Counted from the stretch's first letter, positions 6,098-38,549 are shown. The stretch: 53,302 nucleotides of DNA from Patescibacteria group bacterium (GCA_043807255.1 JAZDGD010000010.1:1-53302); one strand, 5' to 3'. Notes: generated by a model from the sequence alone, not told the origin. A program made the numbers and translations.

Positions 6098-7525
6098 TTA
6101 TTTTGTTTTTTTGTCTGGAATTCTGATTTTTAATTCTTTAAGTTGGGCGTCGTCAATTCTGCTTGGTGCGTTCATCATTAAATCGCGTCCGTCGCCTGCC
6201 TTAGGAAACGCAATCACTTCACGAATACTCGGTTCATTATTTAAAATCATAATTAATCGGTCAATGCCCATAGCTATTCCTCCGTGTGGCGGAACGCCAT
6301 AACTAAATGCTTCCAGCATGTGTCCGAATTTTTCCAAAACATCTTCAGTTTTGTTTCCCATTAATTCAAATGTCGCTTGTAGAATCTTTGGGCTGTGTTC
6401 TCTGATTGAACCACCGGCAATTTCATAACCATTACAAACAAAATCATATTGATGAGCTAGTGCTATTTTTTGGTTTTTGTTTAAATATTCAATAAATTCT
6501 TTTTCTGGAAGATTGTTCGGGTTTTGTGCTTTTGTGAATGGGTGATGGGTTGCGTCCCACCTCTTTTCGGTTTCTTTCCATTCAAACGCAGGAAAATCAA
6601 CAACAAAACAAAAAGCCAATTCGTTTTTTCCGCCCGAGGCGGATCCGCCCTGGGCGGAATCTTTCCTTAAATCTGGTTTGTCGGAATTATATTTTTCCAT
6701 TGCTTCCTTGTAGGTTAAGCGCGGGAAGGGAATTTGGGTAATGTGTTTTTCTGGACAAATTTTGGCGACCATTTCAATGGCCATTTTTTCCATTAATGCT
6801 AAAATTTCATCTTGTGTTGGAAACGACATCTCGACGTCTAACTGCGTAAATTCTGGCTGTCTATCTCCTCTTGCGTTTTCGTCTCTGAAGCATCGAGCAA
6901 TTTGAAAATATTTTTCAATTCCCCCAACCATTAACAATTGCTTGTATTGTTGTGGTGATTGCGGAAGCGCATAAAATGTTCCTTCTTGTAGTCGCGATGG
7001 CACAACATAATCACGCGCTCCTTCGGGAGTTGATTTGGTTAAAATCGGAGTTTCAATTTCTAAAAATCCTTTATCCGATAAAAAGTTTCGAATGTATTGT
7101 ATAATTTGATGTCTTAAAATCAAGTTATTTTTAATTCTCTCTCTGCGAATATCAAGATATCTGTATTTTAATCTAAGTTCCTCATTCACTTCGTAGCCAT
7201 CGGTGTCAATTGCAAATGGAGTCGTTTCTGCTTTGTTAATGATTTCTAATTTTTCTGCTTGCATTTCGACCGTTCCAGTTGACAAATTCAGATTAATCAT
7301 TTTGTCCGGTCGCTTATTAATTGTTCCTTCAATTGAAATTACCCATTCGGTTCTTACATCTTTGACCATTTCGGCGTCAGTAAAGACAACCTGTAACAAA
7401 CCAGATCTATCGCGTAAATCAATAAAAACAATTTTACCGTGATTTCTGCGGTTATGCACCCAGCCAAAAACTTTAACCTTTTCTCCTGCCTTATTAATTG
7501 TTTCAATAATATTAGTTCGTTCCAT
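6098..7525 (-). CDS. aspS: Aspartyl-tRNA synthetase, bacterial-type flanks but lacking the GAD insertion domain
   Basis: N-terminal OB fold, QSPQQYKQLLMV, motif 2 FRDENARGDRQPEFTQLD and motif 3 GGIAMGIDRLIM. SDKPDLR is joined to VVDFPAFEW by only about 20 residues. Confidence 0.93.
   Translation of the reverse strand: MERTNIIETINKAGEKVKVFGWVHNRRNHGKIVFIDLRDRSGLLQVVFTDAEMVKDVRTEWVISIEGTINKRPDKMINLNLSTGTVEMQAEKLEIINKAETTPFAIDTDGYEVNEELRLKYRYLDIRRERIKNNLILRHQIIQYIRNFLSDKGFLEIETPILTKSTPEGARDYVVPSRLQEGTFYALPQSPQQYKQLLMVGGIEKYFQIARCFRDENARGDRQPEFTQLDVEMSFPTQDEILALMEKMAIEMVAKICPEKHITQIPFPRLTYKEAMEKYNSDKPDLRKDSAQGGSASGGKNELAFCFVVDFPAFEWKETEKRWDATHHPFTKAQNPNNLPEKEFIEYLNKNQKIALAHQYDFVCNGYEIAGGSIREHSPKILQATFELMGNKTEDVLEKFGHMLEAFSYGVPPHGGIAMGIDRLIMILNNEPSIREVIAFPKAGDGRDLMMNAPSRIDDAQLKELKIRIPDKKTK
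6629..6658. repeat. Tandem GC hairpins inside aspS (TCCGCC-CGA-GGCGGA, TCCGCC-CTG-GGCGGA)
   Basis: Two adjacent 15-nt perfect hairpins encode SAQGG and SASGG in the aspS frame, in an otherwise AT-rich gene. Confidence 0.9.
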
Positions 7526-7529
7526 ATGT

Positions 7530-7979
7530 TTATTCGATATCTAAAATTTTATAATGAATTTTGCCGTTAGGGGTCAGAACAACAACTTCTTCGCCTTTCT
7601 TTTTGCCGAAAAATGCTCTGCCCAATGGTGATTCATTCGAAATCATCCCCTTTGATGGGTCTGCTTCTTCTGAACCGACCAAAGTAAATTCTTTTTTAGA
7701 ATCACTGTTTTTGACCGTAATTTTACAACCAACATCAACATAATCACATTTATGTTTTTTATCTACAAGTTTTGCTTCTCCCAAAAATTGTTCTAATTCT
7801 TTTATTTTTCCCTCATTAAAGGCTTGTGATTCTTTGGCTTCGGTATATTCAGCACTTTCAGAAATATCTCCCCTCTCTTGGGCTTCTTTTATTTGTTCAG
7901 AAATATCTTTTCGATTTTCTTTTAAGGCAGTTAATTTTTCGCGAAGTTCTTTATATTTTTCTGGGCTAATGTATTTCAT
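7530..7979 (-). CDS. greA: Transcription elongation factor GreA
   Basis: N-terminal coiled coil (EKYKELREKLTALKE) and a C-terminal domain with ISNESPLGRAFFGKKKGEEV. The start is placed at ATG 7979; the ORF extends to 8042. Confidence 0.88.
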   Translation of the reverse strand: MKYISPEKYKELREKLTALKENRKDISEQIKEAQERGDISESAEYTEAKESQAFNEGKIKELEQFLGEAKLVDKKHKCDYVDVGCKITVKNSDSKKEFTLVGSEEADPSKGMISNESPLGRAFFGKKKGEEVVVLTPNGKIHYKILDIE

Positions 7980-8038
7980 TGTGTAAATTAAATTATTCTT
8001 TTTATTAATAGTTAATATTAACGTAAATAAAACTAATG

Positions 8039-9916: not shown

Positions 9917-10394
9917 ACTCTATTTTGTTTGTATACCACTTAATTAAATAAAATATTGGCAAAGAAAGAATTAATCCGTAGATGATTTTTGTAACAGATC
10001 CCAGCCAATAAAAATTAAATCCTAAGCGAAATAATTTTGAAAAAATAATTAATAAAATTTCGTTAAAAATCAAGGAAATTGTAAAAATTAAAATTAATGA
10101 TAATTTATTTTCTTTTTTTAAATATCTTTGGTTAAGAAATTCGGCCAGAATACAGACAAAAAGCATGATCAATGTGGATACTCCCAGAATATTGTTTAAA
10201 GAATAGAAATCAAGAAACAATCCAGCAACAATTATCCAAATTAAATTTTGTTTCCATCCCTTCAAAATTGTTAGAGCAATAAGAACCAATAAAATAAGAT
10301 TGGGATAATTGTTTACAATTTTAAAATTTGGCAAGATGCCAATTTGTAGAAACAATAACGCGACAACAAACAAAACAATAACAATATATTTCAT
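9897..10394 (-). CDS. mreD: Rod shape-determining protein MreD
   Basis: Small multi-TM protein immediately after mreC, overlapping both neighbours. Confidence 0.7.
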   Translation of the reverse strand: MKYIVIVLFVVALLFLQIGILPNFKIVNNYPNLILLVLIALTILKGWKQNLIWIIVAGLFLDFYSLNNILGVSTLIMLFVCILAEFLNQRYLKKENKLSLILIFTISLIFNEILLIIFSKLFRLGFNFYWLGSVTKIIYGLILSLPIFYLIKWYTNKIEYVDKIK

Positions 10395-11173
10395 TTAATA
10401 ATAATTACGTTTTCTAATTTAGAAAAATTAATTGCCGGAGAAATTATAATTTTTTGAAAAATTTGATTATCGGACGGATCGATACTTTCAATTGTGCCGA
10501 CAATGATCCCCCTGGGATATAAATTATCCATGCCAGAAGTAATTATTTTTTCGTTTATTTCAATCTTCTCTGTGTTGGGGATAAAGTCCATAAATAATCC
10601 CCCCTTATCACTTCTCTTTACCAGGCCTTCGATGCGACTACTTTCAAGCATTGCCGAAACCGTAGAATCCTTATGAGATATAAGCATTATCTTGGAAAAC
10701 CCCTCCAGAACCTCAGTGATTCGACCCACAAGAGCTTTTTCTGGTGAAATGGCCATCATCCCCTCTTTAATGCCATTGTTGCTTCCCCTGTTGATTAAAA
10801 TCCAATCTTGAATTCCTTGAATGTCCTTACTTACGATTGAAGCCACTTCCTCTATTGAGTATTCTTTTTTGTCTATTTTAAGCGCTTCTCTTAAAAAATC
10901 ATTTTCTTTTTTTATTTCTTTAAACTGCACAATCTCTGACTCGAGCGTTAAGTTTTTTTGCTTAAATTCAATATTTTCTTTATTCAAATCGCTAATAGAT
11001 GCTAATACTTGAAAGAAATTGGCGAATCCCTTACCAATATTTGAAAACAGTTTTTGAATTGGTGAAAATATTTTATAAACAAAATTCCCAAGTCCTTTAT
11101 TGAGACCAGGGATTAAATTTATTGTTACCAAAACAATCGCCAAGATTAAAAATATTAAAAATGTTTTTTTCAT
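10391..11173 (-). CDS. mreC: Rod shape-determining protein MreC
   Basis: N-terminal TM, coiled coil, then a beta-rich domain, between mreB and mreD. ATG 11173 lies 2 nt after the mreB stop; the ORF-track start at 11200 is GTG. Confidence 0.8.
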   Translation of the reverse strand: MKKTFLIFLILAIVLVTINLIPGLNKGLGNFVYKIFSPIQKLFSNIGKGFANFFQVLASISDLNKENIEFKQKNLTLESEIVQFKEIKKENDFLREALKIDKKEYSIEEVASIVSKDIQGIQDWILINRGSNNGIKEGMMAISPEKALVGRITEVLEGFSKIMLISHKDSTVSAMLESSRIEGLVKRSDKGGLFMDFIPNTEKIEINEKIITSGMDNLYPRGIIVGTIESIDPSDNQIFQKIIISPAINFSKLENVIIIK

Positions 11174-12228: not shown

Positions 12229-13638
12229 TTAATATGACTTAGCGAATAATACTTCGAATTTCCCCTCCTTGTTACATTTTACACATTTACCCTTTTTATT
12301 TTTTTGATCGAAAGGAATACATCTAATTGTAGCTTTTGTTTGTTCTTGAATTTCTTTTTCGCATTTTGGATCACCGCACCAGTGAGTCTTAATAAGGCCA
12401 CCCTTTTCCTCTAAAACTTTTTTGAATTCGTCATAAGTTTTAACTTCGTAAGTATTTTCAATCGTAAACTTTTTAGATGTTTCGTATAGTCTTTTTTGCA
12501 TTTCCTCTAAAAGTTTTTCGGGCTTGAATTGCTTTAAACCAACGCTCTCTTTTTTTAGAACGTCTCTTAAAACATAAGTAATTTTGTTCTCTTTAGCTTC
12601 TCTTAATCCAATTTCGATTCTTAGTGGTGCGCCTTTCAATTCCCATTCATGAAATTTCCATCCCGGACTTTGTTGTTCGTTTTTGTCGGTATAGAAATAA
12701 TACATTTTTCTATCAATTAAATATTTTTCAATTTTTTTAACGTATTTTAATACTTTATCGTCAAAAGAAATTGGAATAATTACTATCGGATATTGAGCTA
12801 ATTTTGGTGGCAATACCAATCCTTTGTCGTCACCGTGACTCATAATTATTCCACCAATCATCCTCGTGCTAACACCCCAAGATGTTTGCCAGACATATTT
12901 TTTTTCACTCTTTTCGTCTAAAAACTGGATATTAAATGATTTAGCAAATCCTTGGCCTAATTGGTGAGAAGTCCCCATCTGTAAGGCTTTTCCATCTTTC
13001 ATTAATGCTTCGAAAGTAAGTGTATATTTTGCTCCTGGAAACTTTTCGGCATCGGTTTTTTTGCCCGGGACACAATAAATTCCTAAATATTCTTTTGCAA
13101 AATCATTATACATATTTAATGCTTCCATTGCCATTGCGTCTGCCTCTTTTTCAGTAGCGTGTGCAGTATGTCCTTCTTGCCATAAAAATTCCATTGTTCT
13201 CAAAAATAATCTAGTTCTCATTTCCCATCTTACAATATTTGCCCATTGATTTATTTTGAATGGCAAATCACGATGAGAATGAATCCAATTAGAAAATGAA
13301 TCATACATTATTGTTTCAGAGGTTGGTCGAATTGCAAGTTTTTCTTCTAATTTTTTACCTCCGCCGTGGGTAACCCAGGCAACTTGAGGATTAAATCCTT
13401 CAACATGTTCTGCTTCTTTTTTGAAAAATCTTTCAGGAATAAATAAAGGAAAATAGACATTATCTACGCCCATATTTTTAATCTTAATGTCCATCATTTT
13501 TTGGATATTTTCCCAAATAGCATAGCCATAGGGTCGAATAATCATACACCCTTTAATTGGTGCATAATCTGCTAGTTTTGCTTGTAAAATTACTTCATTA
13601 TACCATTTTGAAAAATCGTCCGATTGTTTTGTTAACAT
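12229..13638 (-). CDS. proS: Prolyl-tRNA synthetase, archaeal/eukaryote-like type with C-terminal zinc domain
   Basis: N-terminal FSKWYNEV...ADY...KGCMIIRPYGYAIWE, no bacterial INS editing domain, a Cys-rich C-terminal domain, and a ...AKSY terminus. Confidence 0.9.
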   Translation of the reverse strand: MLTKQSDDFSKWYNEVILQAKLADYAPIKGCMIIRPYGYAIWENIQKMMDIKIKNMGVDNVYFPLFIPERFFKKEAEHVEGFNPQVAWVTHGGGKKLEEKLAIRPTSETIMYDSFSNWIHSHRDLPFKINQWANIVRWEMRTRLFLRTMEFLWQEGHTAHATEKEADAMAMEALNMYNDFAKEYLGIYCVPGKKTDAEKFPGAKYTLTFEALMKDGKALQMGTSHQLGQGFAKSFNIQFLDEKSEKKYVWQTSWGVSTRMIGGIIMSHGDDKGLVLPPKLAQYPIVIIPISFDDKVLKYVKKIEKYLIDRKMYYFYTDKNEQQSPGWKFHEWELKGAPLRIEIGLREAKENKITYVLRDVLKKESVGLKQFKPEKLLEEMQKRLYETSKKFTIENTYEVKTYDEFKKVLEEKGGLIKTHWCGDPKCEKEIQEQTKATIRCIPFDQKNKKGKCVKCNKEGKFEVLFAKSY

Positions 13639-13642: not shown

Positions 13643-14731
13643 TTAAAATAATTTAATTACATCTCGCAAGGTTACAATGACCATTAAACCGATTAAAATT
13701 GCAAAACCAAGCGTATGTGCAATTCTTTCGGTTTTAACCCTTACTGGTTTGCCTTTAATTTTTTCGATCAACAAGAACAATAATCTCCCACCATCTAATG
13801 CTGGAAATGGCAAAATGTTTATGATTGCTAAATTAATCGATAGAATTGCTGCAAATTGTAAAACATAAACCCAACCCAATTGTACTACCTGCGAAGTTAA
13901 AACAGCGATACCAATTGGTCCAGCCACATCTCCGATCATTTTTCCTTGAAATAATAGGGTTTTAATTAACAACCAAAACATTGTGACCATGGTTACGGCC
14001 AACTTTCCAGTCGCTTCAAGTCCCTTCCAAATTGCCACATACCAAGGATATGAAATGGTTCCAGTTTTAGACATTGCAATGCCCAATGCTCCCTCTTCTT
14101 TTGGTGGATCAACTCGCGGGGTTAAATTTTTTTCTAATATTTCGTTTCCCCTATTGATTGTCATGGTGATTTCTTCTCCGACATGAAACGCAATAAATTT
14201 CTGAACATCCTCTATTTCGTTGATTTTTAATTTTTCATTTTTAATTTTTAATTCCAGTATGGTGTCCCCTACTTTAATGCCCGCATTTTCAGCTGGAGAA
14301 TTTTTGGCAGTTTCGACTATTTGTATTTGAACGTTTCGATAATTTGCTTCCTGTCCTTGTTCAACAAATGTTGGCACGCCGAGCATATGTACGATTGAAA
14401 GTAAAACTACGGCTAAAACTAAATTCATTACCACGCCCATAACTAAAATAATTGCTCTTTGCCAAATCGGTTTATTGTAGAATGCGAATTTGGAATCCGA
14501 ACGCTTATCGTCCTGTTCCTCGCCAAAGATTTTTACAAACCCTCCCAATGGAACAGCATTTATGGAATAGGTCGTATCACCTTTTTTAAAACCAAAAATT
14601 CTTGGCGGAAAACCAAAACCAAATTCTTCAACTCTAACTCCCGCTTTTTTTGCACTAATAAAATGTCCCAATTCATGGGCAAATATTAGCACCCCTAATA
14701 TTAATAAAAAAACGATAATAGTAAGAATCAT
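13643..14731 (-). CDS. rseP: Site-2 protease RseP (M50 zinc metalloprotease)
   Basis: HELGHF, a central PDZ-like segment, and NILPFPALDGG. Confidence 0.9.
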   Translation of the reverse strand: MILTIIVFLLILGVLIFAHELGHFISAKKAGVRVEEFGFGFPPRIFGFKKGDTTYSINAVPLGGFVKIFGEEQDDKRSDSKFAFYNKPIWQRAIILVMGVVMNLVLAVVLLSIVHMLGVPTFVEQGQEANYRNVQIQIVETAKNSPAENAGIKVGDTILELKIKNEKLKINEIEDVQKFIAFHVGEEITMTINRGNEILEKNLTPRVDPPKEEGALGIAMSKTGTISYPWYVAIWKGLEATGKLAVTMVTMFWLLIKTLLFQGKMIGDVAGPIGIAVLTSQVVQLGWVYVLQFAAILSINLAIINILPFPALDGGRLLFLLIEKIKGKPVRVKTERIAHTLGFAILIGLMVIVTLRDVIKLF

Positions 14732-14735: not shown

Positions 14736-15293
14736 TTATACTGTCATGATATCGGTTTCTTTGGCTTTTTTAAGATCGTCAATTTTTTTGTTGTAATCGT
14801 CAACTAATTTTTGTAAATCATCCTTAGCGCGGAATTTATCATCTTCTCTCATCTCCCCTTTCTTCTCCATTTCCTGAATTTCTTTCCAAATTTTTTCTCG
14901 ATGCAAGCGCATAGAAATTTTTGATTCTTCGGTTTTATCGGCAACAATTTTTACATATTCTTTTCTTTGTTCTTCGTTTAAAGAAGGGATATTAATCCTG
15001 ATAATGTCGCCATCAACAATTGGACTAAATGGTGATTTATTTCTTACCCCTTTTTCAATCTCAGCCATTACTGACTTGTCCCAGGGCTGAATTGTAATTA
15101 ATTGTGGTTGTGGCGCACTGATTGCCGCCAATTGTTTCAAAAGGAATTTTTGGTTGTTGTAACATTCAATTTCGATATCTTCAACCATTGCTGAATTTGC
15201 GCGACTGGTTTTAACCCTAGCTAATTCTGCTTTTAAAAACGCTAAAGTTTTTTCGAATTCTTGTTTTAAATTGTCTAATAATTGTTTATACAT
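14736..15293 (-). CDS. frr: Ribosome recycling factor
   Basis: 185 aa with the typical RRF layout (RVKTSRANSAMVEDI..., IPSLNEEQRKEYVK). Confidence 0.92.
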   Translation of the reverse strand: MYKQLLDNLKQEFEKTLAFLKAELARVKTSRANSAMVEDIEIECYNNQKFLLKQLAAISAPQPQLITIQPWDKSVMAEIEKGVRNKSPFSPIVDGDIIRINIPSLNEEQRKEYVKIVADKTEESKISMRLHREKIWKEIQEMEKKGEMREDDKFRAKDDLQKLVDDYNKKIDDLKKAKETDIMTV

Positions 15294-16018
15294 AAGATTA
15301 AATTTTCCAAGGCCAATCTCTGATTTACGTTCGTGCCAGAAATTAGGTCTTTAGTTTTTTGTATTTCTTTGAGAATTTTTACTAAATTCTCAGGCGATCC
15401 CGCATCGCGGGATTTAGCCTCAATTAATTTTTCTCGAAACCAGAATAACCAAGAGTTAAGAATGGGAAAGATTTCTGAATTATTTTCCCTGCCCTCCTTG
15501 TTTTCTTTGGCAATTTTTTCGATATATTTAAAAATATCGTTTAATGGTTTATTTAGTATATTAATATGTTCTTCGATGATGAAATCTTTGGCAATTTTAT
15601 TTAAGGATCCGGATTTAAATCTAATTTCTTGTAATCGAGAAAGGATTGTTTTAGACAATAAATCAGGATTAGATGTGATTAAAATTAAGATCGTATTTCC
15701 CAATGGCTCTTCAAGGGTTTTCAAGAGCGCATTTGACGCTTCGCTGTTCATCGTTTCGGCTCCATCGATAATCACAAATTTATAGAAACTATTATACGGT
15801 GATAAATTAAGGTGTTTTTTAACGTCCTTAATTTGGTCAATGGAAGTTTCCTTTTTCCCTTCCCTGGGGACAATATAAAGAATGTCAAATTTGTCAGTTT
15901 TTAAAAAATCAGCGAATTCAAGTGCAGTATTTTTCATTTCCTGACTTGTTCCATTGTAAAACAAATACGCATGAGCTAATTTTCCATTTTTAGCCGCATT
16001 TTTCAAAAACTCTAACAT
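15275..16018 (-). CDS. holB: DNA polymerase III delta' subunit (clamp loader)
   Basis: LAHAYLFYNG, AETMNSEASNALLKTLEEP and SRLQ sensor region, in a short 247-aa form. Confidence 0.75.
   Translation of the reverse strand: MLEFLKNAAKNGKLAHAYLFYNGTSQEMKNTALEFADFLKTDKFDILYIVPREGKKETSIDQIKDVKKHLNLSPYNSFYKFVIIDGAETMNSEASNALLKTLEEPLGNTILILITSNPDLLSKTILSRLQEIRFKSGSLNKIAKDFIIEEHINILNKPLNDIFKYIEKIAKENKEGRENNSEIFPILNSWLFWFREKLIEAKSRDAGSPENLVKILKEIQKTKDLISGTNVNQRLALENLILCINNY
15397..15413. repeat. GC hairpin ATCCCGC-ATC-GCGGGAT inside holB
   Basis: Perfect 7-bp stem encoding part of SRDAGSP. Confidence 0.85.
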
Positions 16019-16036: not shown

Positions 16037-17143
16037 TTAATGCTTGTCCGCAAATTGATCTATAAATTCCAAAATTTCTTTTTTGAAGCGGTCTTCGGAA
16101 AATTGTTGAGCGTGACGAGAAATAAATTGCGAGTCGTAATTTTTGAGGTTTAAGCGCAATCTGCGAATTCCATCTGCTAAAATTGCTGAATTTTGATAAT
16201 CAAAAAATTCTCCAGTTTTTCCCTCAATGACTGTTTCCAATGCTCCGCCTTTTCGATATGCCAAGACCGGCTTGCCACAACTCATTGCTTCAACTGGCGC
16301 AATTCCAAAATCATCATCTGACGGAAAAACAAATGCCGTACAATCTTGATAATATTTTTTCACAACTTCGTTTGATTGAAATCCCAGAAATTTAACATTT
16401 TTCCCATGCCTACCCATGCCTACCGGCAGGCAGGCGGCAGGCAGGTTGGCAATTCTTTGCAAATTTTCTTTTTCTGGTCCGTCCCCTATTATTACTAAAT
16501 CGAGTCCCAATTTATTAAACGCTTCAACCGCCAAATCAATCCGCTTGTATTTTTGTAATCGCGACACAATCAGATAGAATTCTGAATTTTGCTTGTCCTC
16601 CGAAGCCTTGGCGTAGGAGGAGATTTGAACGGGCGGGTATATTACTACCGACTCTCTTTTATAGTATTTTTTAATTCTATTTTGTACCGCTCTCGAACAT
16701 GCGATGAATTTATCCACCCGTTCCGATGCTTGCCTGTCCCACATTCTGAAATAATGTAACAAAATATTTTTTCTTGATTTGTCCCACAAATAACGCGTAG
16801 GACTAAAACAATACGAAATATGAATTGTTTTTGGTCGAGTAATAATTCCTTTTACAAATGAATGACTTGCCGAAATCACAATATCATAATCTCTTAAATC
16901 GATAGTTTCGGCGGCAATTGGTAAAAATGGTAGCAATAATTGATATCTTTTTCTAATAAACAATGGCAATCGCTGTAAAAAAGAAGTGTTCATTCTGTGA
17001 ATCGGAAACAGTTCTTTCTTTATTTTTGGGTCATAAAAAAGAGTATACAACTCGGCGTCAGGAAAAATATCAGACAATGTTTTAAATGTCTTCTCTGCTC
17101 CGCCATAATTCACTAAATAATCGTTTATAATTGCAATTTTCAT
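16037..17143 (-). CDS. Glycosyltransferase family 4
   Basis: GT-B fold C-terminal signature FPSDDDFGIAPVEAMSCGKPVLAYRKGGALETV. ATG 17143 forms an ATGA overlap with the upstream GT4. Confidence 0.85.
   Translation of the reverse strand: MKIAIINDYLVNYGGAEKTFKTLSDIFPDAELYTLFYDPKIKKELFPIHRMNTSFLQRLPLFIRKRYQLLLPFLPIAAETIDLRDYDIVISASHSFVKGIITRPKTIHISYCFSPTRYLWDKSRKNILLHYFRMWDRQASERVDKFIACSRAVQNRIKKYYKRESVVIYPPVQISSYAKASEDKQNSEFYLIVSRLQKYKRIDLAVEAFNKLGLDLVIIGDGPEKENLQRIANLPAACLPVGMGRHGKNVKFLGFQSNEVVKKYYQDCTAFVFPSDDDFGIAPVEAMSCGKPVLAYRKGGALETVIEGKTGEFFDYQNSAILADGIRRLRLNLKNYDSQFISRHAQQFSEDRFKKEILEFIDQFADKH
16403..16447. repeat. GC-rich low-complexity/imperfect palindrome inside the GT4 gene
   Basis: CCATGCCTAC x2 followed by GGCAGGCAGGCGGCAGGCAGG, encoding NLPAACLPVGMGRHG. 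Confidence 0.8.
16596..16621. repeat. GC hairpin TCCTCC...GGAGGA inside the GT4 gene
   Basis: 6-bp outer stem with an imperfect inner GCC/GGC stem, encoding SSYAKASEDK in a linker. Confidence 0.65.
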
Positions 17144-18279
17144 TTTAAAATTACATCTAATGTTTCTTTGGCGCATTTGGGCCAGGAGAAACGTTGAATA
17201 TTTTCATATCCCCTTTTAACTAATTCGTCGCTAAATGTTTGATTGCGAATAATTTGATGAATCCCCTCGGCAATTTCCGATGGTTTATATGGATTAACCA
17301 AAACCGCACTTGGCTCCTTTTGTGACGGATTAAAAACAATTTCCGGCATACTGGAGATACTTGAACAAACAACCGGTGTGCCAACTTTTTGTGCCTCTAA
17401 AATTGGAAGTCCGAATCCTTCATAAAAAGATGGATAAACAAAAACATCGGCATTCTTTAATAAATTCCATTTTTTCTCATCACTAACATACCCGGTGCAA
17501 ATTATTTCATTTTTTAAATCATTGGGAATTTTATATCCAGTATTTGGTCCAACTAAAATTAATTTATGTGGTATTTTATGATCGTTTTTTAAAATCCTGA
17601 GCGCTTTAATTAGGCCATTAATGTTTTTTCTTTTATCTTGTCTGCCAATATAAATTAGGTACGGGCCAAAATGATTTGTTTGGACCGCGTCAAACGCGGC
17701 CTGCGTCGCGTCAAACGCGACTTCGGGGTTCCCAACTCCGTGATACACAACAAAGATTTTGCCTGCCCCGACTTTTTTAAAAACATCGGGGTAATACCTT
17801 AATAAGTCTTGTTTTGTTGACTTTGATGGCACGATAATTCTATTTGCTCTTTTTGTATTTCTTTTCGTAATCCATCTTAAGAATTTTCTTTTTAAAAATG
17901 AATACATTTTAGGCAATTTCTCAAATTCTAATCCTTGAATTGTAACAATCAATTTTGTTTTTTTAGGCAAAAACGGATGTAAATGTGCTGGCGTAAATAA
18001 AATATCGTATTTATTTTTATGCACTTCCCAACTCAATCGAATAATTGTCCAAAACTTTTTAAATGGCCAATTCAGTTGTTTTAAAATGTATCTTTTATTG
18101 TCCGTCTTCGATCCTTCGGCGATTTCTTTTAAAACCGACGTAATTTGCGGAGTTAATATAAAAAATTGATGATTTTCAAAACCATCAACCGACGAGAGAT
18201 TCCAGAGTAAATGATAAATATATTCTTCAACTCCGGTTCTTTTTTCGAGAGGAATATTTACAGAAATTGCTATACGCAT
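17140..18279 (-). CDS. Glycosyltransferase family 4
   Basis: YPSFYEGFGLPILEAQKVGTPVVCS signature on a GT-B fold. Confidence 0.85.
   Translation of the reverse strand: MRIAISVNIPLEKRTGVEEYIYHLLWNLSSVDGFENHQFFILTPQITSVLKEIAEGSKTDNKRYILKQLNWPFKKFWTIIRLSWEVHKNKYDILFTPAHLHPFLPKKTKLIVTIQGLEFEKLPKMYSFLKRKFLRWITKRNTKRANRIIVPSKSTKQDLLRYYPDVFKKVGAGKIFVVYHGVGNPEVAFDATQAAFDAVQTNHFGPYLIYIGRQDKRKNINGLIKALRILKNDHKIPHKLILVGPNTGYKIPNDLKNEIICTGYVSDEKKWNLLKNADVFVYPSFYEGFGLPILEAQKVGTPVVCSSISSMPEIVFNPSQKEPSAVLVNPYKPSEIAEGIHQIIRNQTFSDELVKRGYENIQRFSWPKCAKETLDVILK
17685..17721. repeat. Tandem GC hairpins CCGCGT-CAA-ACGCGG and GTCGCGT-CAA-ACGCGAC inside the GT4 gene
   Basis: Two perfect hairpins 5 nt apart, each encoding AFDA (protein VAFDATQAAFDAVQ). 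Confidence 0.9.
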
Positions 18280-20383: not shown

Positions 20384-20453
20384 TATAATCGGAATTATGG
20401 TTTTCTTCCACTCAAGACACGATCGTAGCTTGAGTTGAAGGTTGAATTTTGAA

Positions 20454-20493
20454 TAAAAAAATAGCGGGCAGGCACTCCATAGTACTCGCCCGC
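20454..20493 (-). terminator. Possible terminator of the lipoprotein gene
   Basis: GCGGGC/GCCCGC stem (20464-69 and 20488-93) with an 18-nt loop, followed on the minus strand by TAT-T7. Confidence 0.4.
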
Positions 20494-20519
20494 CTTGCGG
20501 TTCCGTGGTCGTGATCGTG

Positions 20520-20978: not shown

Positions 20979-21004
20979 CTTTACGCCTCCTTAGCGTTAT
21001 CGTA

Positions 21005-21034
21005 AGTATAGCATACTTCATGTTAAATTGTCAA
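21005..21034 (-). promoter_or_regulatory. Sigma70-type promoter TTGACA-N18-TATACT for the lipoprotein gene
   Basis: On the minus strand, TTGACA (21034-21029) and TATACT (21010-21005) precede TAAGGAGGCGTAAAG-ATG. Confidence 0.6.
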
Positions 21035-21139: not shown

Positions 21140-21172
21140 GATTTACCTCCTTTCATAAAGTGCATATCTGTT

Positions 21173-27635: not shown

Positions 27636-28226
27636 TTAGAACATTATATCTTCTTCTGCGCGCTTGTAGTCGTGAATTTCTTCTGGTGAAAACCAAAATT
27701 CAATTTCGTGTTTTGCTTCTTCTGGCGTTTCTGATGCATGAATGAGATTTCTAATACCTCTCTTGCCTTTGTTCGCTGCAATTGGTGAATCAACTGAAAA
27801 ATCTCCCCTAATTGTTCCCATTTCAGCTAGCGCAGGAACTGTATTGCCAACCAATTTTCTTACCATGTCTATGGCGTGTATGCCCTTAATCACCATTTTA
27901 ACAACTGGGCCAGAGGTCATATAATCAATTAACCATCCCCTAACCATCTTGCCAATTTCTTCTGAACTATCTGTGCCAATTTCATCTTTAGCGTTGAAAC
28001 CATATTTATCATAAGTTGCTTTTGTTTTTTCGCCAATTCTTGTTATCCATTCAATGTTTTTTGGATAGTGGTCGTCAACCTGCTGTTTCGTTGGCCAGGC
28101 CATTTCCAAAGCAATAATTTTAAGTCCACGCCTTTCAATGCGCGAAACAACTTCTCCAACCAATCCCCTCTTTACTCCATCTGGTTTTATTAATACCAAT
28201 GTTTTTTCTTCTTTTGGTTCAATCAT
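27636..28226 (-). CDS. ndk: Nucleoside diphosphate kinase (long form with internal insertion)
   Basis: LVLIKPDGVKRGLVGEV, TIRGDF and NLIHASE (catalytic His). Confidence 0.88.
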   Translation of the reverse strand: MIEPKEEKTLVLIKPDGVKRGLVGEVVSRIERRGLKIIALEMAWPTKQQVDDHYPKNIEWITRIGEKTKATYDKYGFNAKDEIGTDSSEEIGKMVRGWLIDYMTSGPVVKMVIKGIHAIDMVRKLVGNTVPALAEMGTIRGDFSVDSPIAANKGKRGIRNLIHASETPEEAKHEIEFWFSPEEIHDYKRAEEDIMF

Positions 28227-28246: not shown

Positions 28247-28921
28247 TTAATTCTGAATGCAAATGTAGCGATATTTTTTAAATTGATCTTTGTAAATTTT
28301 ATAATTTGGATAATTTAATTCTTTTAACAATTTTTCTAAATCCATCTTTTGTAAACAATCAAACTCCATATATATTTTACCGCCCGGTTTTAAATATTTC
28401 CTCGCATCTTTTAAAAATTTTCTGATATATAGCAATCCGTCTTCTCCACCAAATAGGGCCAGATGTGGTTCATAATCAAGCACTGATTTTTGAATTAGGT
28501 GCTTGTTTTTTATCGATACGTATGGAGGATTGGCAAAAATATAGTTGTATCTTGTGCCCAATATTCGGTCCTTGAAGGACCGAAATATGTCCGATTGAAT
28601 TACTTTGTATTTGCGTGGGTTGATTTTATTTAATTTTAAGTTTAGCTGGATTTGTTTAATCAAATTTTTATCAATTTCTATAAAATCTACTTTTGAATTC
28701 TCGATATGTTTTAAAATTGAAATGCCAATACATCCAGAACCAGCAAACACGTCTAGCACGTTGACATCTCCAACAATTCCAGCGCTTCCAACATCTTGCA
28801 TTGTTTTTTTTATCCAAAATTCTGTTTCTTTTCTTGGAATTAGTGGCTTCATAGACAAATTAATTTTGCATCCAGCAAAATTAATATAATCTTTTTTATA
28901 TTCTTTTGGTATGTTATCCAT
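28247..28921 (-). CDS. prmC: Release-factor glutamine N5-methyltransferase (short form)
   Basis: VLDVFAGSGCIG SAM loop and NPPY. ATG 28921 is preferred over the GTG at 28960. Confidence 0.8.
   Translation of the reverse strand: MDNIPKEYKKDYINFAGCKINLSMKPLIPRKETEFWIKKTMQDVGSAGIVGDVNVLDVFAGSGCIGISILKHIENSKVDFIEIDKNLIKQIQLNLKLNKINPRKYKVIQSDIFRSFKDRILGTRYNYIFANPPYVSIKNKHLIQKSVLDYEPHLALFGGEDGLLYIRKFLKDARKYLKPGGKIYMEFDCLQKMDLEKLLKELNYPNYKIYKDQFKKYRYICIQN
28561..28588. repeat. 28-nt near-perfect palindrome inside prmC
   Basis: ATATTCGGTCCTT-GA-AAGGACCGAATAT gives a 13-bp stem and encodes IFRSFKDRIL just upstream of NPPY. Confidence 0.9.
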
Positions 28922-32773: not shown

Positions 32774-35101
32774 TTATTCCAATGCTTTTAATATTTTTTT
32801 CTTGAGGCCTTGTGGGTCGAATTCTGCGTATTCATAGACTTCTGCGGTTGTGCCTGATTTTAAGAATTTATTAATGCCAATTATTTTCTTTTCATAATCT
32901 TTTGGTAAGGCAAATGCATTTAAGAATCCTGGCCAACCATTATGAAGGGTAATTACAACTTCTCTATCTTTATCAGAAAATATTGAATTTGCTTTTTCTG
33001 AATCGGTTTGTCTTAATTCTTCAAACAATTCTGGCGAAGTTACAGCAAGAATTTTTACATCATAATTTTCTTCCAAATCTGGTAAAATCTCTAAAACGTT
33101 TGCTAAAACTTGTCCACCAGAAATTGCTAAACAGGTTTTCTTTTTTCCATTTTCGGAATAATTTTTAAATACATAGGCGCCATTTATTGCTTCCTTTGCC
33201 TCTGGAACTGTAAATCCTGAGCCCGTCGAAGGACCCCTTTTAAATACTGGCGTATTCGGTCGCATTACTGACAAAGCAATTGGTTCGCCTTTTTGCATCG
33301 CATAAAACAACATTTCAATTGTTTCGTTAGCATCAAGTGGTTTATAAACCTTAATTCCCGGATAAGCCATAAATAATGACATCCAAAACATTCCATGATG
33401 CGTTGGACCATCTTCTCCTGTTTCTGGGCCATCGTGTGCAGCTAACATTATATAAAATCCATTAAAATTGGGATTAGTATGATTATGAATTAACGACATT
33501 CTTACGGAATTGGCCATAATCGATGTAAACACTCCATAAGTCGCAAAAACACTCATCGCCTTAAATCCTCCAGGCAAAATGTCTTGCGTTAAAGACGTAG
33601 ACATCATTGCCATGTTTTGTTCAGCAATACCAAATCTAATTCCTCTCCCCAATGGATTTTCCTGATTTATAATTCCATAAACATTTTCTGCAGTACTAGT
33701 TAAAATTGATTTTGCTAAATCCCCTGACCCCAAATAGAAGAATGCCGTTTGTGACATCATCCATTTAAAAAATGCTTCTGTCGCTTTTCTCGTTGCAATT
33801 GGTTTGCCCTGCTCAAAAACTAATTCTGCTGGCAATGTTTCTGGTCGTTTTATGTTTTGGTAATCAATCATCGGCCTATCTCCTAATGATTTTTTCATCT
33901 GGCTTAATAATTCTTGTTCTGATTTTTGTTTTTTTGCACCAATTTCTAATCGTTCAATTAAATATTCAACAAATTCATTAGTTAGCTTTGATAAAACAAC
34001 ATCAATATCTTTTATTTGCTCACCTTCAATGCCAGGAATTTCAAATCCTAATTTCTTCATCACTTGCACATATTCTTCATGCGACAATGGCATACCATGC
34101 GAATCAGCAGTGTCATTAAGTTTTCCGTAATCCTTGCCCTTAATTGTGTGTGCAATGATTACAGTTGCTCGTTTATTATCGAATCCTTGAAATGCTTTTT
34201 TGTAAGCATAAATTAATTCTGTAACATTATGCCCATTAACCTCAATAACATTCCACCCCGCACCAAACCAGTGATTTATGTATGGAGAATTAATTACTTC
34301 TGTTGTTGGTCCATCAATACCAAATTTATTTAAATCCAAACTAACAACAATATTGTTCATACCCAATGATTGAATTAGATTTCTTGCCTCATAAGATATT
34401 CCTTCTTCGGTTTCGGCGTCTCCAGCTAAAACAAAAACTTTTGCATCTAATCCGTTTGATTTCTGTAATGTTGCCAATCCTAATGCCGCAGATAATCCGT
34501 GTCCAGAGGAACCAGTAGAGATGTCGGACAAGGGATAATTTGATTCAACATGACCGCTGGGACCGTTACAATGTCTAAATTTAACCAAGCAAGCAGGATA
34601 AAATGCTTCTAATTTTTCAATATCAAATTTTTCTCCTTTTCTTTTTAACGACTCATATATTAAAGATAAAATTGAATGAAATAATGGCGTGCAATGACCT
34701 GCCGCCCAAACAATTCTATCTCTGCCGGGATGATTTGGATTTAGTGGATCAAAAACGAAATCACCGGACAAAAGTAAGGATAAAATTTGTTCTACCTTTG
34801 AAGACGACCCACCAGGATGTCCAGATTTTATACTGTCGATTGCGCAAAATGCCATCGCTCTTAATATTTTCGCCAATTCGCTTGTTTTTTCTAAATCAAT
34901 TCCTTCAATTGGTTTTAAATTTAAATCTTGTAAATTAATATAGTTTCCACCCTCAGCTAAATATTTAAATCTCTTGGGTTCTTTTTTAATTAAAGAATCT
35001 AATTCCTTTTTATCTAAAATATTATAACCGGAGCCCCGTACCTTCGACAAAGTCGAAGCGTCGGGGTTGTTTTTTTTGATTGTGATTTTTTTAATTACCA
35101 T
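32774..35101 (-). CDS. tkt: Transketolase with an N-terminal extension of about 100 aa
   Basis: SGHPGGSSS, GDAETEEG, and pyrimidine-binding and C-terminal domains. At 775 aa it is longer than typical. Confidence 0.88.
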   Translation of the reverse strand: MVIKKITIKKNNPDASTLSKVRGSGYNILDKKELDSLIKKEPKRFKYLAEGGNYINLQDLNLKPIEGIDLEKTSELAKILRAMAFCAIDSIKSGHPGGSSSKVEQILSLLLSGDFVFDPLNPNHPGRDRIVWAAGHCTPLFHSILSLIYESLKRKGEKFDIEKLEAFYPACLVKFRHCNGPSGHVESNYPLSDISTGSSGHGLSAALGLATLQKSNGLDAKVFVLAGDAETEEGISYEARNLIQSLGMNNIVVSLDLNKFGIDGPTTEVINSPYINHWFGAGWNVIEVNGHNVTELIYAYKKAFQGFDNKRATVIIAHTIKGKDYGKLNDTADSHGMPLSHEEYVQVMKKLGFEIPGIEGEQIKDIDVVLSKLTNEFVEYLIERLEIGAKKQKSEQELLSQMKKSLGDRPMIDYQNIKRPETLPAELVFEQGKPIATRKATEAFFKWMMSQTAFFYLGSGDLAKSILTSTAENVYGIINQENPLGRGIRFGIAEQNMAMMSTSLTQDILPGGFKAMSVFATYGVFTSIMANSVRMSLIHNHTNPNFNGFYIMLAAHDGPETGEDGPTHHGMFWMSLFMAYPGIKVYKPLDANETIEMLFYAMQKGEPIALSVMRPNTPVFKRGPSTGSGFTVPEAKEAINGAYVFKNYSENGKKKTCLAISGGQVLANVLEILPDLEENYDVKILAVTSPELFEELRQTDSEKANSIFSDKDREVVITLHNGWPGFLNAFALPKDYEKKIIGINKFLKSGTTAEVYEYAEFDPQGLKKKILKALE
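35034..35066. repeat. GC hairpin inside the tkt N-terminal extension
   Basis: CCCCG-TAC-CTTCGAC-AAA-GTCGAAG-CGT-CGGGG encodes PDASTLSKVRGS. Confidence 0.85.
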
Positions 35102-35107
35102 ATGTTT

Positions 35108-36372: not shown

Positions 36373-36404
36373 GTTTTTGTCTCCTTAAATTACATACTAC
36401 CACC

Positions 36405-37457
36405 TTATTTATTTTGCGTCAATTGACCGCAGGCAGCTTGAATCTCCGAGCCTAAACTTTTTCTAATTGTCGTGCTAATTTTATTTTTGATTAAAAAGTT
36501 TTTAATCCCCTGAACCTTGTTATAATCAGAAGCTTTTAGTTTTGAATCCGTAGAATTATATCGAATCAAATTAACATGCAATAAATAATTGTTTTGAATT
36601 GATTTTAAATATTTTAAAAGTTCTTCAACATCTTTTTCAGTATCGTTTATATCTTTGAGCAATAGATATTCAATAAATATTTTTCGTTTTGTAATTTGAA
36701 AATAATTCTCAATCCCCTGCTTTATTTTTTCTAAATCATATTCTTTATTAATCGGCATATATTGACTGCGTTTTTTGTTATTCGCAAAATGTAATGAAAT
36801 TGCCAAATTAATTTGTGAAAATTCTTTGGCAAAATCCTCAACTTTATCCATGACTCCCGAAGTTGAAACAGAAATACTACGCGAACCAAAACCAAACAAA
36901 TCTTCATTAATTAAGTCCAATAGTGCTTGTTCGACGTTCTCCCAATTTAAAAATGGTTCGCCCATGCCCATCAACACAATATTGCTAATCGCAATATTGG
37001 AATCTCTAATCTCTAATTTCGAATTTCTAATGTTACCCAAATATTGACGCCAAAATAAAATTTGATCAGTGATTTCTTCTGATGTGAGATTTCTTTTTAG
37101 ACCCATTTTGCCGGTGGCGCAAAATTCACAAGCCAGCGCACAACCTGCTTGCGACGAAACACATACTGACCACAATCCTGGCTTTGGTGAAATTAAAACC
37201 GTTTCAATAAAATTATCATCTTTTAGTCTTAATAATGCCTTAAACGATTTATTGTCTTTAGAAATTAAAAGATTCTCTTGTTTAAACGATAAAATTTGGA
37301 TTTCTTTGTCCAGTAATTCTCGCAAGTCCTTAGGAATATTTTTTATTTCTGAAAACGAACAAACGCCATCTTTATAGATGGCCTTTTTAATCTGTTCCAA
37401 CCTATATTTCGGCTGTTCATTCTCTTTCAAAATTTTCTCAAGTTTTTGTATATTCAT
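36405..37457 (-). CDS. rlmN: 23S rRNA/tRNA m2A methyltransferase (radical SAM)
   Basis: CALACEFCATG radical-SAM cluster, MGMGEP, and C-terminal AACGQL. Confidence 0.92.
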   Translation of the reverse strand: MNIQKLEKILKENEQPKYRLEQIKKAIYKDGVCSFSEIKNIPKDLRELLDKEIQILSFKQENLLISKDNKSFKALLRLKDDNFIETVLISPKPGLWSVCVSSQAGCALACEFCATGKMGLKRNLTSEEITDQILFWRQYLGNIRNSKLEIRDSNIAISNIVLMGMGEPFLNWENVEQALLDLINEDLFGFGSRSISVSTSGVMDKVEDFAKEFSQINLAISLHFANNKKRSQYMPINKEYDLEKIKQGIENYFQITKRKIFIEYLLLKDINDTEKDVEELLKYLKSIQNNYLLHVNLIRYNSTDSKLKASDYNKVQGIKNFLIKNKISTTIRKSLGSEIQAACGQLTQNK

Positions 37458-38549
37458 TTACGCATTGCTTTTAATTTCAATTACATCGCCATCTTTGATG
37501 ATGGCTTCCTTGCCTTCGGTGCGGATTAGACCTTTTTCGCGAGCATTTCCAAAACCGTTGGCATTTAGCAGGTCCTTCCAATTTACAACCTCTGCCTTAA
37601 TGAAACATCTTTCAAAATCAGTATGAATTACTCCGCCTGCTTGTGGTGCAGTACTGCCCCTGGTCAATGTCCAAGCACGAGTTTCATCTGCTCCTGTTGT
37701 TAAAAACGTGATCAAATCAAGCAATCTGTATGCTTCTTTAATCAATTCGTCCAACTTTGATAATTCTGATAAGCCCAATTCTTTCCTTTCTTCCGTGCCT
37801 AAATCGTTTGCCCCAAATTCACTTAAAATATCAATGATAATATATGGCCAATTTTTATCCTTGAAAACGTTTGTAATTTCGTCAGGAATTTCTTCTTCTT
37901 GACCATTCAATAAATACAAACGTTTTTTCATTGTCAAAAGTTGATAACTACGTAAAATAACTAATTCTTCTTCATCCCACCCCATTTCACTCAAAATTTT
38001 TCCAGTTTTTAAAAATTCCATCGCCTTCTTTAAAACCTCATTTTCTCCGCCAAAAGCTTTGCATTTTGACGGGCCCGCCTGCATCCCGCGGGTTGCGGCG
38101 GGCTTCTTCAGTCTCTCTAGGACATTCTCTACGGTCTCCAAGTCCTTCAAAGCCATTTCCGTATCTAAAATCTCTTTATCTTCTACTGGGTCAATTTTTT
38201 CACGAGTATTAATAATTTTTGCATTTTTAAAGCAACGCAAAACATATACAATAGCATCAACTTCTCTGATGTTGGCTAAAAATTTATTGCCCAATCCCTC
38301 GCCTTGACTCGCGCCCTTAACCAATCCAGCAATATCAACAAATTTTACGGTTGCATAAATCTTTTTTGCCGAATGAGTTAATTCCGCTAACTTATCAACT
38401 CGTTCGTCAGGAACAGCAACCACACCAATGTTTGGATCAATGGTGCAAAATGGATAATTTGCGCAATCTACTTGTTTTTTGGTGATCGCCTGAAACAGGG
38501 TTGATTTCCCCACATTCGGCAATCCCACAATTCCAATTGAGAGAGACAT
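37458..38549 (-). CDS. ychF: Ribosome-binding ATPase YchF
   Basis: GLPNVGKSTLF G1 motif, inserted helical domain, and C-terminal TGS-like HTDFERCFIKAEV. Confidence 0.93.
   Translation of the reverse strand: MSLSIGIVGLPNVGKSTLFQAITKKQVDCANYPFCTIDPNIGVVAVPDERVDKLAELTHSAKKIYATVKFVDIAGLVKGASQGEGLGNKFLANIREVDAIVYVLRCFKNAKIINTREKIDPVEDKEILDTEMALKDLETVENVLERLKKPAATRGMQAGPSKCKAFGGENEVLKKAMEFLKTGKILSEMGWDEEELVILRSYQLLTMKKRLYLLNGQEEEIPDEITNVFKDKNWPYIIIDILSEFGANDLGTEERKELGLSELSKLDELIKEAYRLLDLITFLTTGADETRAWTLTRGSTAPQAGGVIHTDFERCFIKAEVVNWKDLLNANGFGNAREKGLIRTEGKEAIIKDGDVIEIKSNA
38073..38103. repeat. 31-nt GC hairpin inside ychF
   Basis: GCCCGCC-T-GCA-T-CCCGCGGG-T-TGC-GGCGGGC encodes PAATRGMQAGP. Positions 38072-38085 are identical to 45628-45641. 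Confidence 0.9.

Follow-up and report, generated by a model that had tools for sequence, protein, structure and literature searches.

Small REP/RPE-like palindromes probably copied in frame into housekeeping genes of a Patescibacteria bacterium

In-frame palindromic repeats are classic for Rickettsia, where Rickettsia palindromic elements (RPEs) of the RPE-1 type are 100-150 bp long and encode 30-50 amino acids (aa); the expression of RPE peptides has been demonstrated. Compositional analogues occur in mitochondria, namely the GC clusters of yeast, whose mobility was demonstrated genetically by the conversion of empty alleles in crosses, and the double-hairpin elements of fungi. Further analogues in coding or organellar DNA are the repetitive hairpin elements (RHEs) of sponges and the coding palindromes of Nematomorpha. 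The genomes of Patescibacteria (Candidate Phyla Radiation, CPR) are among the most reduced and gene-dense ones and are usually called repeat-poor. In the present work we analyse a Patescibacteria contig of 53,302 bp (GCA_043807255.1 JAZDGD010000010.1:1-53302; the window in the following, always meaning this whole stretch), in which nine short palindromic patches lie within housekeeping genes. At least three of these patches belong to sequence families which are present in other genes and genomes. The bacterial elements closest to them are repetitive extragenic palindromes (REPs). REPs tagged by GTAG/CGTC are found inside known genes of several phyla, including the Rickettsia elements RPE-4/6 (Di Nocera et al. 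2013, PMC3733652). Such intragenic REPs are often dimers, they are located in loops or linkers, and at times different REPs occupy about the same site of a gene; the intragenic location is nevertheless a minority behaviour of REPs (PMC3733652).

The window has a GC content of 34.5%, and 43 of its 45 long open reading frames (ORFs) are on the minus strand. An earlier note on this DNA had described nine GC-rich and self-complementary patches within intact ORFs. All nine are indeed palindromic, form hairpins and are located in long minus-strand ORFs. Their minimum free energy (MFE) is -10 to -29 kcal/mol over 17-45 nt. The patches have 62-84% GC, with the exception of prmC where the GC content of the range 28561-28588 is only 39%. 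The FAD-oxidase patch has to be divided, as only its 5′ half is an insert. The patches are the following.

6629-6658, minus strand: family A double unit in aspS, TCCGCC-CAG-GGCGGA + TCCGCC-TCG-GGCGGA, encodes SAQGGSASGG.
15397-15413, minus strand: family A2 hairpin in holB, ATCCCGC-GAT-GCGGGAT with the stem TCCCGC, encodes part of KSRDAGS.
16403-16444, minus strand: family C element of 42 nt in the first GT4 gene (GT4a-1), a nested hairpin with two GTAG motifs, encodes LPAACLPVGMGRHG.
16596-16621, minus strand: hairpin TCCTCC...GGAGGA in the inter-domain linker of the first GT4 gene (GT4a-2), encodes SSYAKASED.
17685-17721, minus strand: two tandem hairpins of the type CGCGT-TTG-ACGCG in the inter-domain linker of the second GT4 gene (GT4b), encodes VAFDATQAAFDAV.
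22783-22809, minus strand: family B element in the FAD-linked oxidase gene, (A)GC CCC TCG ACT GCG CTC GGG GCA GGC, encodes SPSTALGAG.
22764-22782, minus strand: host codons FVRTQPG, not part of the insert, which pair with the tail of the family B element.
28564-28584, minus strand: prmC hairpin of 21 nt, TTCGGTCCT-TCA-AGGACCGAA, with a perfect 9-bp stem and a 3-nt loop, 14 aa upstream of the NPPY motif.
35034-35066, minus strand: element near the N-terminus of tkt, CCCC GACG CTTCGAC-TTT-GTCGAAG GTAC GGGG, encodes NPDASTLSKVRG.
38073-38103, minus strand: ychF element, GCCCGCC-GCAACCCGCGGGATGC-GGCGGGC, at the tip of the helical domain, encodes KPAATRGMQAG.

The peptides quoted in the earlier note are correct on translation, and aspS and GT4b indeed contain hairpins in tandem with loops of 3 nt. 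The elements measure 15-45 nt, the common units being 15, 21 and 42 nt, and all element lengths are multiples of three and free of stop codons. A predicted peptide spanning a hairpin reads, for example, ...LRKDSAQGGSASGGK....

For comparison, the coding sequences (CDS) of the window were shuffled such that every protein sequence and the codon usage of each gene were retained; within-gene codon permutation was run as well. The CDS hold 11 perfect GC-rich stems of at least 6 bp, compared to 3.5 +/- 1.9 in synonymous-codon shuffles (n=100, maximum 9) and 2.9 +/- 1.8 in within-gene codon permutations. Likewise, 11 CDS regions have a 40-nt MFE of -16 kcal/mol or lower (2.2 +/- 1.5 in 40 shuffles, maximum 6), and three regions reach -20 kcal/mol or lower versus 0.12 in shuffles. 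Stable CDS hairpins are therefore about 5-fold more frequent than in synonymous-codon shuffles (3- to 25-fold depending on the count), contrary to the refuting outcome named in the earlier note, a density no higher than in codon-preserving shuffles. Most hairpins have nearly equal stability on both strands and almost no G-U asymmetry, family C being the exception. We therefore regard them as DNA-level palindromes and not as RNA structures that depend on G-U pairs. Rfam at gathering thresholds and ARAGORN found no known RNA families or tRNAs in the window, and thus the hairpins are not known RNA genes or parts of riboswitches. Two candidate functions were ruled out. Intrinsic terminators within the genes would need a sense-strand U-tract, which follows none of the hairpins, and a DNA-uptake sequence would appear as a dominant 8- to 10-mer; the most frequent ones reach only 4-10 occurrences in 53 kb.

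The best AspRS homologues are labelled Candidatus Portnoybacteria, Paceibacterota or Patescibacteria. Judged from these labels the host is a CPR bacterium, and we assign it by sequence to a Paceibacteria-like member of the Patescibacteria. Among the GTDB species representatives the nearest AspRS is only 76% identical and therefore too far for an empty-site comparison. As closer relatives were needed, we obtained them by exact-protein look-up and from JGI metagenomes. The syntenic contigs have AspRS proteins 87% identical (L081, L082, L085) or YchF proteins 91-92% identical (L087, L088) to those of the window; L089-L097 are further off. Every orthologue indel of at least 3 aa was listed blind to the patches. 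The window-specific insertions in this list are the patches and a few small indels of normal AT-rich composition. The net gains relative to the relatives are 7 aa in aspS, 6 in holB, 14 in GT4a-1, 7 in tkt and 7-8 in ychF; a further insertion of 7 aa was recovered at 42017-42037. The aspS element is absent in four contigs (L081, L082, L085, L001), which have the 9 nt AAAAATGAT at that position, and the holB hairpin is absent in two (L081, L082). The tkt element is absent in L090, where the start MVIKKITIK is kept, so that the element lies within the ORF; the N-termini of L087 and L092 are unalignable. The ychF element adds about 8 residues in comparison to YchF of known structure (PDB) and to relatives of 85-92% identity, and about 60 nt around it are also replaced. 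Thus, relatives at 82-92% protein identity are without the aspS, holB, GT4a-1, tkt and ychF segments; these residues are not conserved between orthologues, and these five patches are lineage-specific. The GT4b, GT4a-2 and prmC patches are located in hypervariable loops. At the variable loop of prmC the window has 5 aa more (net) than L095. The GT4b linker is hypervariable in length (50 representatives, at most 50% identity); as the best GT4b homologue is only 50% identical, nothing beyond a hypervariable linker can be assigned here.

The patch in aspS belongs to family A. The family A unit TCC GCC nnn GGC GGA has 15 nt, encodes S-A-x-G-G and folds into a 6-bp stem with the middle codon as loop. 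The double unit, i.e. the 30-mer TCCGCC-CAR-GGCGGA-TCCGCC-TCK-GGCGGA, is also present in tkt of L087 and L095, at a site which is orthologous in these two contigs and empty in the window and in four other relatives. The aspS and tkt copies are near-identical (28/30). Between L087 and L095 the tkt copies are identical at 30/30 positions, and the flanking 600 nt are only 78% identical (0.78^30 ~6e-4). The double unit is further found at the same aspS site in L169 (SARGGSAFGG) and at a second aspS site in L071. Comparing the window with L169, the stems are identical at 24/24 positions and the four differences are all in the two loops, with flanks of about 66% identity. Within the 2.2 Mb of related loci, on which all family and stem counts are based, TCCGCC-N3-5-GGCGGA is found 31 times, the mirror, direct-repeat or swapped-arm controls 0-2 times. 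Ten of the twelve listed non-redundant units are in long ORFs and all of these read S-A-x-G-G; the two remaining units are in phase 2, one within an ORF of 79 aa and one at residue 8 of an ORF of 351 aa. The family A2 stem recurs as well. TCCCGC-N3-5-GCGGGA occurs 17 times versus 0-1 for the control arrangements, mostly in non-coding DNA, and the A and A2 stems are the two commonest GC-rich stems in the sample. Among 2.9 M viral contigs searched, only two contain the family A double unit; both have 53-55% GC and are uninformative for a viral link. In one of them, L172 from IMG/VR (53% GC), the double unit at 390-419 encodes SALGGSASGG, the C-terminus of an ORF resembling a group II intron reverse transcriptase.

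Family C connects one of the GT4 genes with prmC. Relative to L081 and L082 the GT4a-1 element is inserted directly 5′ of AAAAAT. In prmC of L095 a family C element of equal frame and size (42 nt by alignment, core 41 nt) also stands directly 5′ of an A-tract (AAAAT by alignment, AAAAAT from the core). The sequence GGTAGGCA, which contains the GTAG tag, occurs twice in family C. Single units of 21 nt are found in homologues of the FAD oxidase (ACLPVGK, PACRQAG, GLPAGKA) and intergenic copies in four contigs (L101, L104, L113, L157).

Family B has the core CCCTCGA-N5-CTCGGGG, often followed by CAAGC, which encodes P-S-T-x-L-G and occurs in five different genes. It is present in the FAD oxidase, in murG of L085, at the AspRS junction of L167 and L170 and at window position 42020. 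The latter copy (42018-42039, minus strand, CCCCTCGATCGTGCTCGGGG, encoding PSIVLGV) is in a gene for an HI0933-like flavoprotein (41198-42532) and is a 7-aa insert relative to L097; the earlier note did not list it. The frame of family B is nearly always P-S-T-x-L-G and is once reversed (SRAKSRE). In the FAD oxidase the element takes the place of an ancestral turn G-(P/D)-(D/N), with a net gain of 6 aa. The host codons at its 3′ side are a different matter, since (F/Y)(V/I)(R/K)TQPG is kept in 77/77 aligned homologues. Seven full-length homologues have 85-90% identity to the oxidase; the six P0122-P0127 are without insert, and P0128 (85%) carries a family B insert of its own, SPSTTLGTA, in this position. 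In total about 25 of the 77 homologues have inserts of 6-9 aa at this exact site, in scattered lineages and in a patchy manner with respect to identity; about two thirds are without. Several FAD-oxidase homologues (P0133, P0135, P0193, P0128, P0134, P0181, P0191) have more inserts of 7-8 aa at other positions (GLPAGKA, PACRQAG, ACLPVGK, RGESTRGG, HS(R/Q)KPGA), several of which are single family C units.

A second hot spot is found in AspRS. The patch is located exactly where bacterial AspRS has its GAD domain of about 120 residues, as judged by comparison with solved structures. The AspRS of the whole clade (457-487 aa; gene at 6098-7525 in the window) is without this insertion domain. The ancestral junction is DLRKD-KND-KNELAF, and only 8 of the 120 homologues have an insert, 112 being without. 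At this junction inserts of at least three hairpin families are found, among them A and B. The AlphaFold (AF2) model of AspRS has pLDDT values below 50 at residues 291-297, between blocks of 82 and 95. The tip of YchF is similar. In L091 the outer stem of the element is kept and the inner part is another palindrome, and two further contigs (L108, L145) have other GC-rich inserts at this site. The holB hairpin is in the variable C-terminal region beyond the Pfam domain (aa 2-136), and the tkt element is upstream of the Transketolase_N domain, which begins at aa 74. The Pfam domain limits, the comparison with PDB structures, the alignment of the GT4 linkers and the AspRS model therefore agree with the view of the earlier note that the sites are linkers or variable loops.

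We also looked at the geometry of the insertions by DNA alignment. The GT4a-1 element is a clean insertion of 42 nt, and in aspS 30 nt stand for 9 nt. None of the clean cases has a target duplication, and both arms of the elements are alien to the local AT-rich sequence. An unbiased census gave 60 non-redundant inserts that are restricted to a lineage and measure at least 5 aa; 10 of them combine a high GC content with strong folding, as compared to 1.6% of control segments. The commonest insert length in this census is 7 residues (21 nt). At 5 of about 19 distinct element sites AAAAA follows directly 3′, and most sites are A-rich. An A-tract as shared target motif was considered and given up, because loops of an AT-rich genome are rich in Lys/Asn, from which such a signal cannot be separated. 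In AT-rich loci GC-rich perfect hairpins are 5.6-fold more frequent in non-coding than in coding DNA (6.3 versus 1.1 per 10 kb). The majority of them still fall in ORFs, because the coding density is about 88%. The sharing of a 30-mer, a 42-mer and a sequence of about 20 nt across unrelated genes of related genomes is the signature of copied, mobile-type DNA.

A further family, termed T, has only a moderate GC content. Its hairpin in the PAP2 gene was, like the element in the flavoprotein gene, missing from the earlier list. The window has three copies.

About 23454-23476, minus strand: family T hairpin of moderate GC at the C-terminus of the PAP2 gene, TTTACGAGGC-TAA-GCCTCGTAAA, in the reading frame.
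About 38594-38620 and about 45208-45230: intergenic T copies, terminator-like.

There are no T copies in the homologous 20-kb regions of the closest relatives sampled. Family T is of interest because of its neighbourhood in other contigs. L170 has a gene for a 237-aa protein with the PF01797 domain (Y1_Tnp), whose best NCBIfam match is the model of the REP-associated tyrosine transposase (RAYT); the score of 45 bits does not reach the cut-off of 80. In a database search 8,000 candidates were scored, nearly all of them homologues (E <= 1e-5), and the named top matches are from Patescibacteria, Parcubacteria, Wolfebacteria and Colwellbacteria, with one exception from Spirochaetia. We found such RAYT-like genes (231-256 aa) in five contexts (L170 17027-17990; L173-L175 at about 9960-10760; L176 1489-2259). 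In all five the hairpin T, ATCTTACGAGGTTnAACCTCGTAAGATT or a variant of it, precedes the gene. In L170 and L173-L175 T also follows the gene and in L176 another hairpin does. The gene itself contains a conserved internal T copy, which is in frame and encodes (S)YEVKPRK. A compensated stem variant, CCGAGG/CCTCGG, is common to the internal and the upstream copy of L176, which is more distant. By its sequence and gene order, the RAYT-like gene together with hairpin T is a putative REPtron-like arrangement that is common in the clade.

How do the patches compare with the known systems? With REPs and their REPIN-RAYT relatives they share that they are short imperfect palindromes which occur as singles and dimers, and that within genes they are in loops and linkers, with different elements at about one site. 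The location agrees in part: per base the hairpins of the clade are mostly extragenic, as expected of REP-like elements, and the patches described here are intragenic. The termini of REPs can supply stop codons, and here the loop of hairpin T supplies a TAA. The tags agree in part. GTAG is present in family C and CGTC beside the tkt stem, where it abuts the inner stem on the opposite strand within an outer CCCC/GGGG clamp, whereas families A, A2 and B and the ychF, GT4b and prmC hairpins are without GTAG/CGTC. A RAYT-like gene with a cognate hairpin exists in the clade for family T; none was seen flanked by the GC-rich families. Other differences are the host, as Patescibacteria/CPR are not listed in the survey (PMC3733652), the shorter units of 15-21 nt, the many low-copy families instead of one abundant family and the strong GC contrast with the host.

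With RPEs the patches have in common that they are in-frame palindromic repeats in housekeeping genes, lineage-specific, in surface regions and with families that extend across unrelated genes. The RPEs differ in phylum and sequence; the elements here have 15-45 nt or 5-15 aa, and their translation is predicted from sequence. Mitochondrial GC clusters are likewise GC-rich hairpins of tens of nt in a compact AT-rich genome, with several families (at least three here) and with hairpins in tandem or as doubles; at times they are inserted in frame in coding regions or variable parts of rRNA, and they show presence/absence polymorphism. They are, however, organellar and not part of a free bacterial chromosome, and in our case mobility is suggested by filled and empty sites. 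The resemblance to RPEs and GC clusters which the earlier note proposed thus holds for the in-frame lineage-specific insertion, the GC contrast and the several families, but not for the length and the consensus of RPEs. The note also knew of no equivalent for this kind of genome. We likewise found no description of such elements in the literature on CPR, Patescibacteria or Parcubacteria; intragenic GTAG/CGTC REPs of other phyla have, however, been reported (PMC3733652). The concept is therefore already known from RPEs, intragenic REPs and mitochondrial GC clusters, and the Patescibacteria variant is a smaller one.

We suggest that the patches are probably selfish REP/RPE-like mini-palindromes which were copied in and survive within genes only at loop positions, with the frame kept and a benign sequence. 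The elements would be copied as DNA to new sites, mostly in non-coding DNA. As about 88% of these genomes is coding, many copies would also land in genes. Of the intragenic copies, purifying selection would then retain only those that measure a multiple of three, are read in a frame with small or neutral residues (S-A-x-G-G, P-S-T-x-L-G, LPAACL...) and sit in surface loops or linkers. These survivors would be translated as short disordered loop extensions and could later decay, duplicate in tandem or be partially rewritten. We infer that the elements are mobile, selfish or neutral, and translated.

Several observations weigh against this interpretation. No family members of the GT4b, prmC and GT4a-2 hairpins were found in the 2.2 Mb, and the ychF and tkt elements have none there beyond their direct orthologues. 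At ychF, holB and GT4a-2, and also in proS of L081, a diverged segment is replaced and there is no clean insertion; for GT4a-2 this follows from the longer, AT-rich and unalignable linkers of the relatives. The recurrence of the same family at the same codon position and in the same frame in the FAD oxidase is not easily explained by random insertion and selection, so that a target preference, repeated loss or the exchange of alleles by recombination may be involved. The copy number per family is low in our sample: REPs are recognised by tens to thousands of copies per genome, and the 53 kb of the genome that are known, the window, have 1-3 copies per family. For the GC-rich families we identified no transposition event, donor copy or enzyme. 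Pfam reveals no transposase gene and no Y1_Tnp among the 44 long window ORFs scanned, and the Y1 genes seen, those of L170 and L173-L176, are flanked by T and not by any of the families A, B and C. Finally, the translation of the inserts is a prediction from their lengths, the absence of stop codons and the frame bias.

With regard to the enzyme, one could speculate that the elements are mobilised as single-stranded hairpins by a HUH/Y1 (RAYT-like) transposase, which we regard as possible but doubtful. The GC-rich families are unlike T in sequence, and as no Y1 gene was seen beside them the link between the RAYT-like genes and the patches is only circumstantial. The circumstantial points are the hairpin substrates, the lack of a target duplication in the clean cases and the frequent abutment on A/T-tracts, the last being inseparable from the Lys/Asn content of loops. 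A bolder version is that there is an active, previously undescribed class of ultra-small hairpins (15-42 nt), which are written into single-stranded DNA beside A/T-tracts without target duplication by a HUH/Y1 (RAYT-like) or other enzyme, repeatedly at permissive codons of AspRS, FAD oxidase and YchF, and which possibly act as a DNA- or RNA-level signal. We think that this is rather unlikely.

Alternatively, the palindromes could arise in place by errors of replication or repair and be non-mobile, the families then being due to gene conversion or convergence. Template switching, hairpin-primed synthesis, centre-out growth and rewriting as well as tandem slippage could build up such sequences in tolerant loops. 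This would fit the private hairpins of GT4b, prmC and GT4a-2, the tandem duplication of units in aspS, GT4b and GT4a-1, the sites at which a segment is replaced and the equal stability on both strands, which is that of DNA-level palindromes. It would also fit ychF, where the window and L091 have the same outer stem around different palindromic centres. Template switching, however, copies neighbouring sequences, yet the arms are unrelated to the AT-rich flanks and have 62-84% GC in a genome of 34% GC. Moreover, 30-mers identical at 28/30 positions and related 42-nt elements in unrelated genes, with flanks of 66-78% identity, make convergence impossible, and it is the stem sequence itself that is invariant and not merely the pairing. 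As an account of the patches as a whole we therefore hold an origin in place to be unlikely, but it probably contributes to the private and the rewritten hairpins.

It might also be that the hairpins are selected as RNA or DNA signals and that the peptide is a by-product. Roles that could be proposed are ribosome pausing, stabilisation of the transcript, binding of a nuclease or another protein, DNA uptake or recombination, and antisense terminators. The stems are conserved far beyond the flanks. In L089 the tkt element is identical at 31/33 positions and the two differences amount to one compensatory change from a T-A to a C-G pair; on the antisense strand a T-run follows the tkt hairpin. REPs have been proposed to be RNA elements elsewhere (PMC3733652). 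A signal should hardly come and go among close relatives in essential genes or be provided by many unrelated sequences at many positions. There is neither a sense-strand U-tract nor a dominant uptake-type k-mer nor an Rfam match, and, save for family C, the two strands form hairpins of the same stability with hardly any G-U asymmetry. Selection as signals is thus improbable in our view.

Even less can be said for the idea that the inserts are selected as flexible Gly/Ser/Ala linkers of the protein and that the palindromy is incidental. Small flexible peptides such as SAQGGSASGG are indeed found in loops and family A is nearly always in its S-A-x-G-G frame. But synonymous shuffling abolishes the hairpins, so the amino-acid sequence does not force the palindromy; identical nucleotide sequences are present in non-coding DNA too, and the closest relatives function without the inserts. 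We consider this explanation very improbable. Chance, composition or an artefact of assembly or polishing is effectively refuted: GC-rich codons for Gly, Ala, Pro and Arg can give short palindromes and the shuffles still contain about 3.5 short perfect stems, but the excess is 3- to 25-fold, and L089 and L091, which were assembled independently from other samples, again contain the tkt and the ychF element, respectively. This excludes the assembly artefact that the earlier note had considered.

The remaining parts of the window can be described briefly. According to the Pfam scan it is a gene neighbourhood of cell envelope and translation with murG, ftsW, mraY, aspS, greA, PBP2, mreBCD, proS, holB and two GT4 genes, followed by genes for the FAD-linked oxidase, copA, ndk, prmC, ftsJ, ddl, tkt, rlmN, ychF, mgsA, obg and rsgA. 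Three genes, proS (12229-13638), an M50 peptidase (13643-14731) and RRF (14736-15293), were identified only via the Pfam annotation of their orthologues. The nucleoside diphosphate kinase (27636-28226) is a long form of 196 aa with an insertion of about 45 aa, which has a normal AT-rich composition and no hairpin element. One more palindrome is intergenic.

45565-45641, no strand assigned: GC-rich inverted repeat GCAGGCGGGC / GCCCGCCTGC with a 10-bp GC stem and a 52-nt AT-rich loop.

This repeat (z = -4.3 versus shuffles) is located in an unusually long intergenic region of 580 nt (45190-45771). The earlier note had stated that one patch shares a 14-mer with an intergenic copy; it is the ychF patch, whose GGCCCGCCTGCATC is found again at 45628-45641, within the repeat. 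For the repeat we consider a small RNA conceivable, as well as a copy that was split or expanded. The stretch from the T hairpin to the start of ychF contains AT-rich palindromic repeats, ATAGATGCA / TGCATCTAT (38622-38660), which may be an operator or promoter element. The region 20400-21260 (about 860 nt, 39% GC) has no Pfam, Rfam or tRNA match; it contains strong hairpins at 20457-20500, 20629-20651 and 21165-21212, and ORFs overlap on both strands, none with a family match. The 9-mer GAAATTGCC is found ten times in the window, always in CDS and in both orientations (e.g. 8400, 18546, 23763 and 36796), where about 0.3 occurrences are expected from the base composition.

If the patches are copied elements, a sizeable share of the lineage-specific indels in housekeeping genes of this clade would be copied GC-rich hairpins, and certain loops, namely the AspRS junction left by the GAD deletion, the turn of the FAD oxidase and the tip of YchF, would have been struck repeatedly. 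The analysis also points to REPtron-like units of a RAYT-like gene and its cognate hairpin as common in the clade. For aligners, gene callers and phylogenomic pipelines the elements would explain odd inserts of low complexity, and as presence/absence markers the inserts may be usable for strain typing. As a natural experiment they may tell which protein loops accept 5-15 additional residues, and they are a tractable system for the movement of REP-like elements. Should an active class of ultra-small hairpins indeed exist, it would be a major source of loop-length evolution in minimal proteomes.

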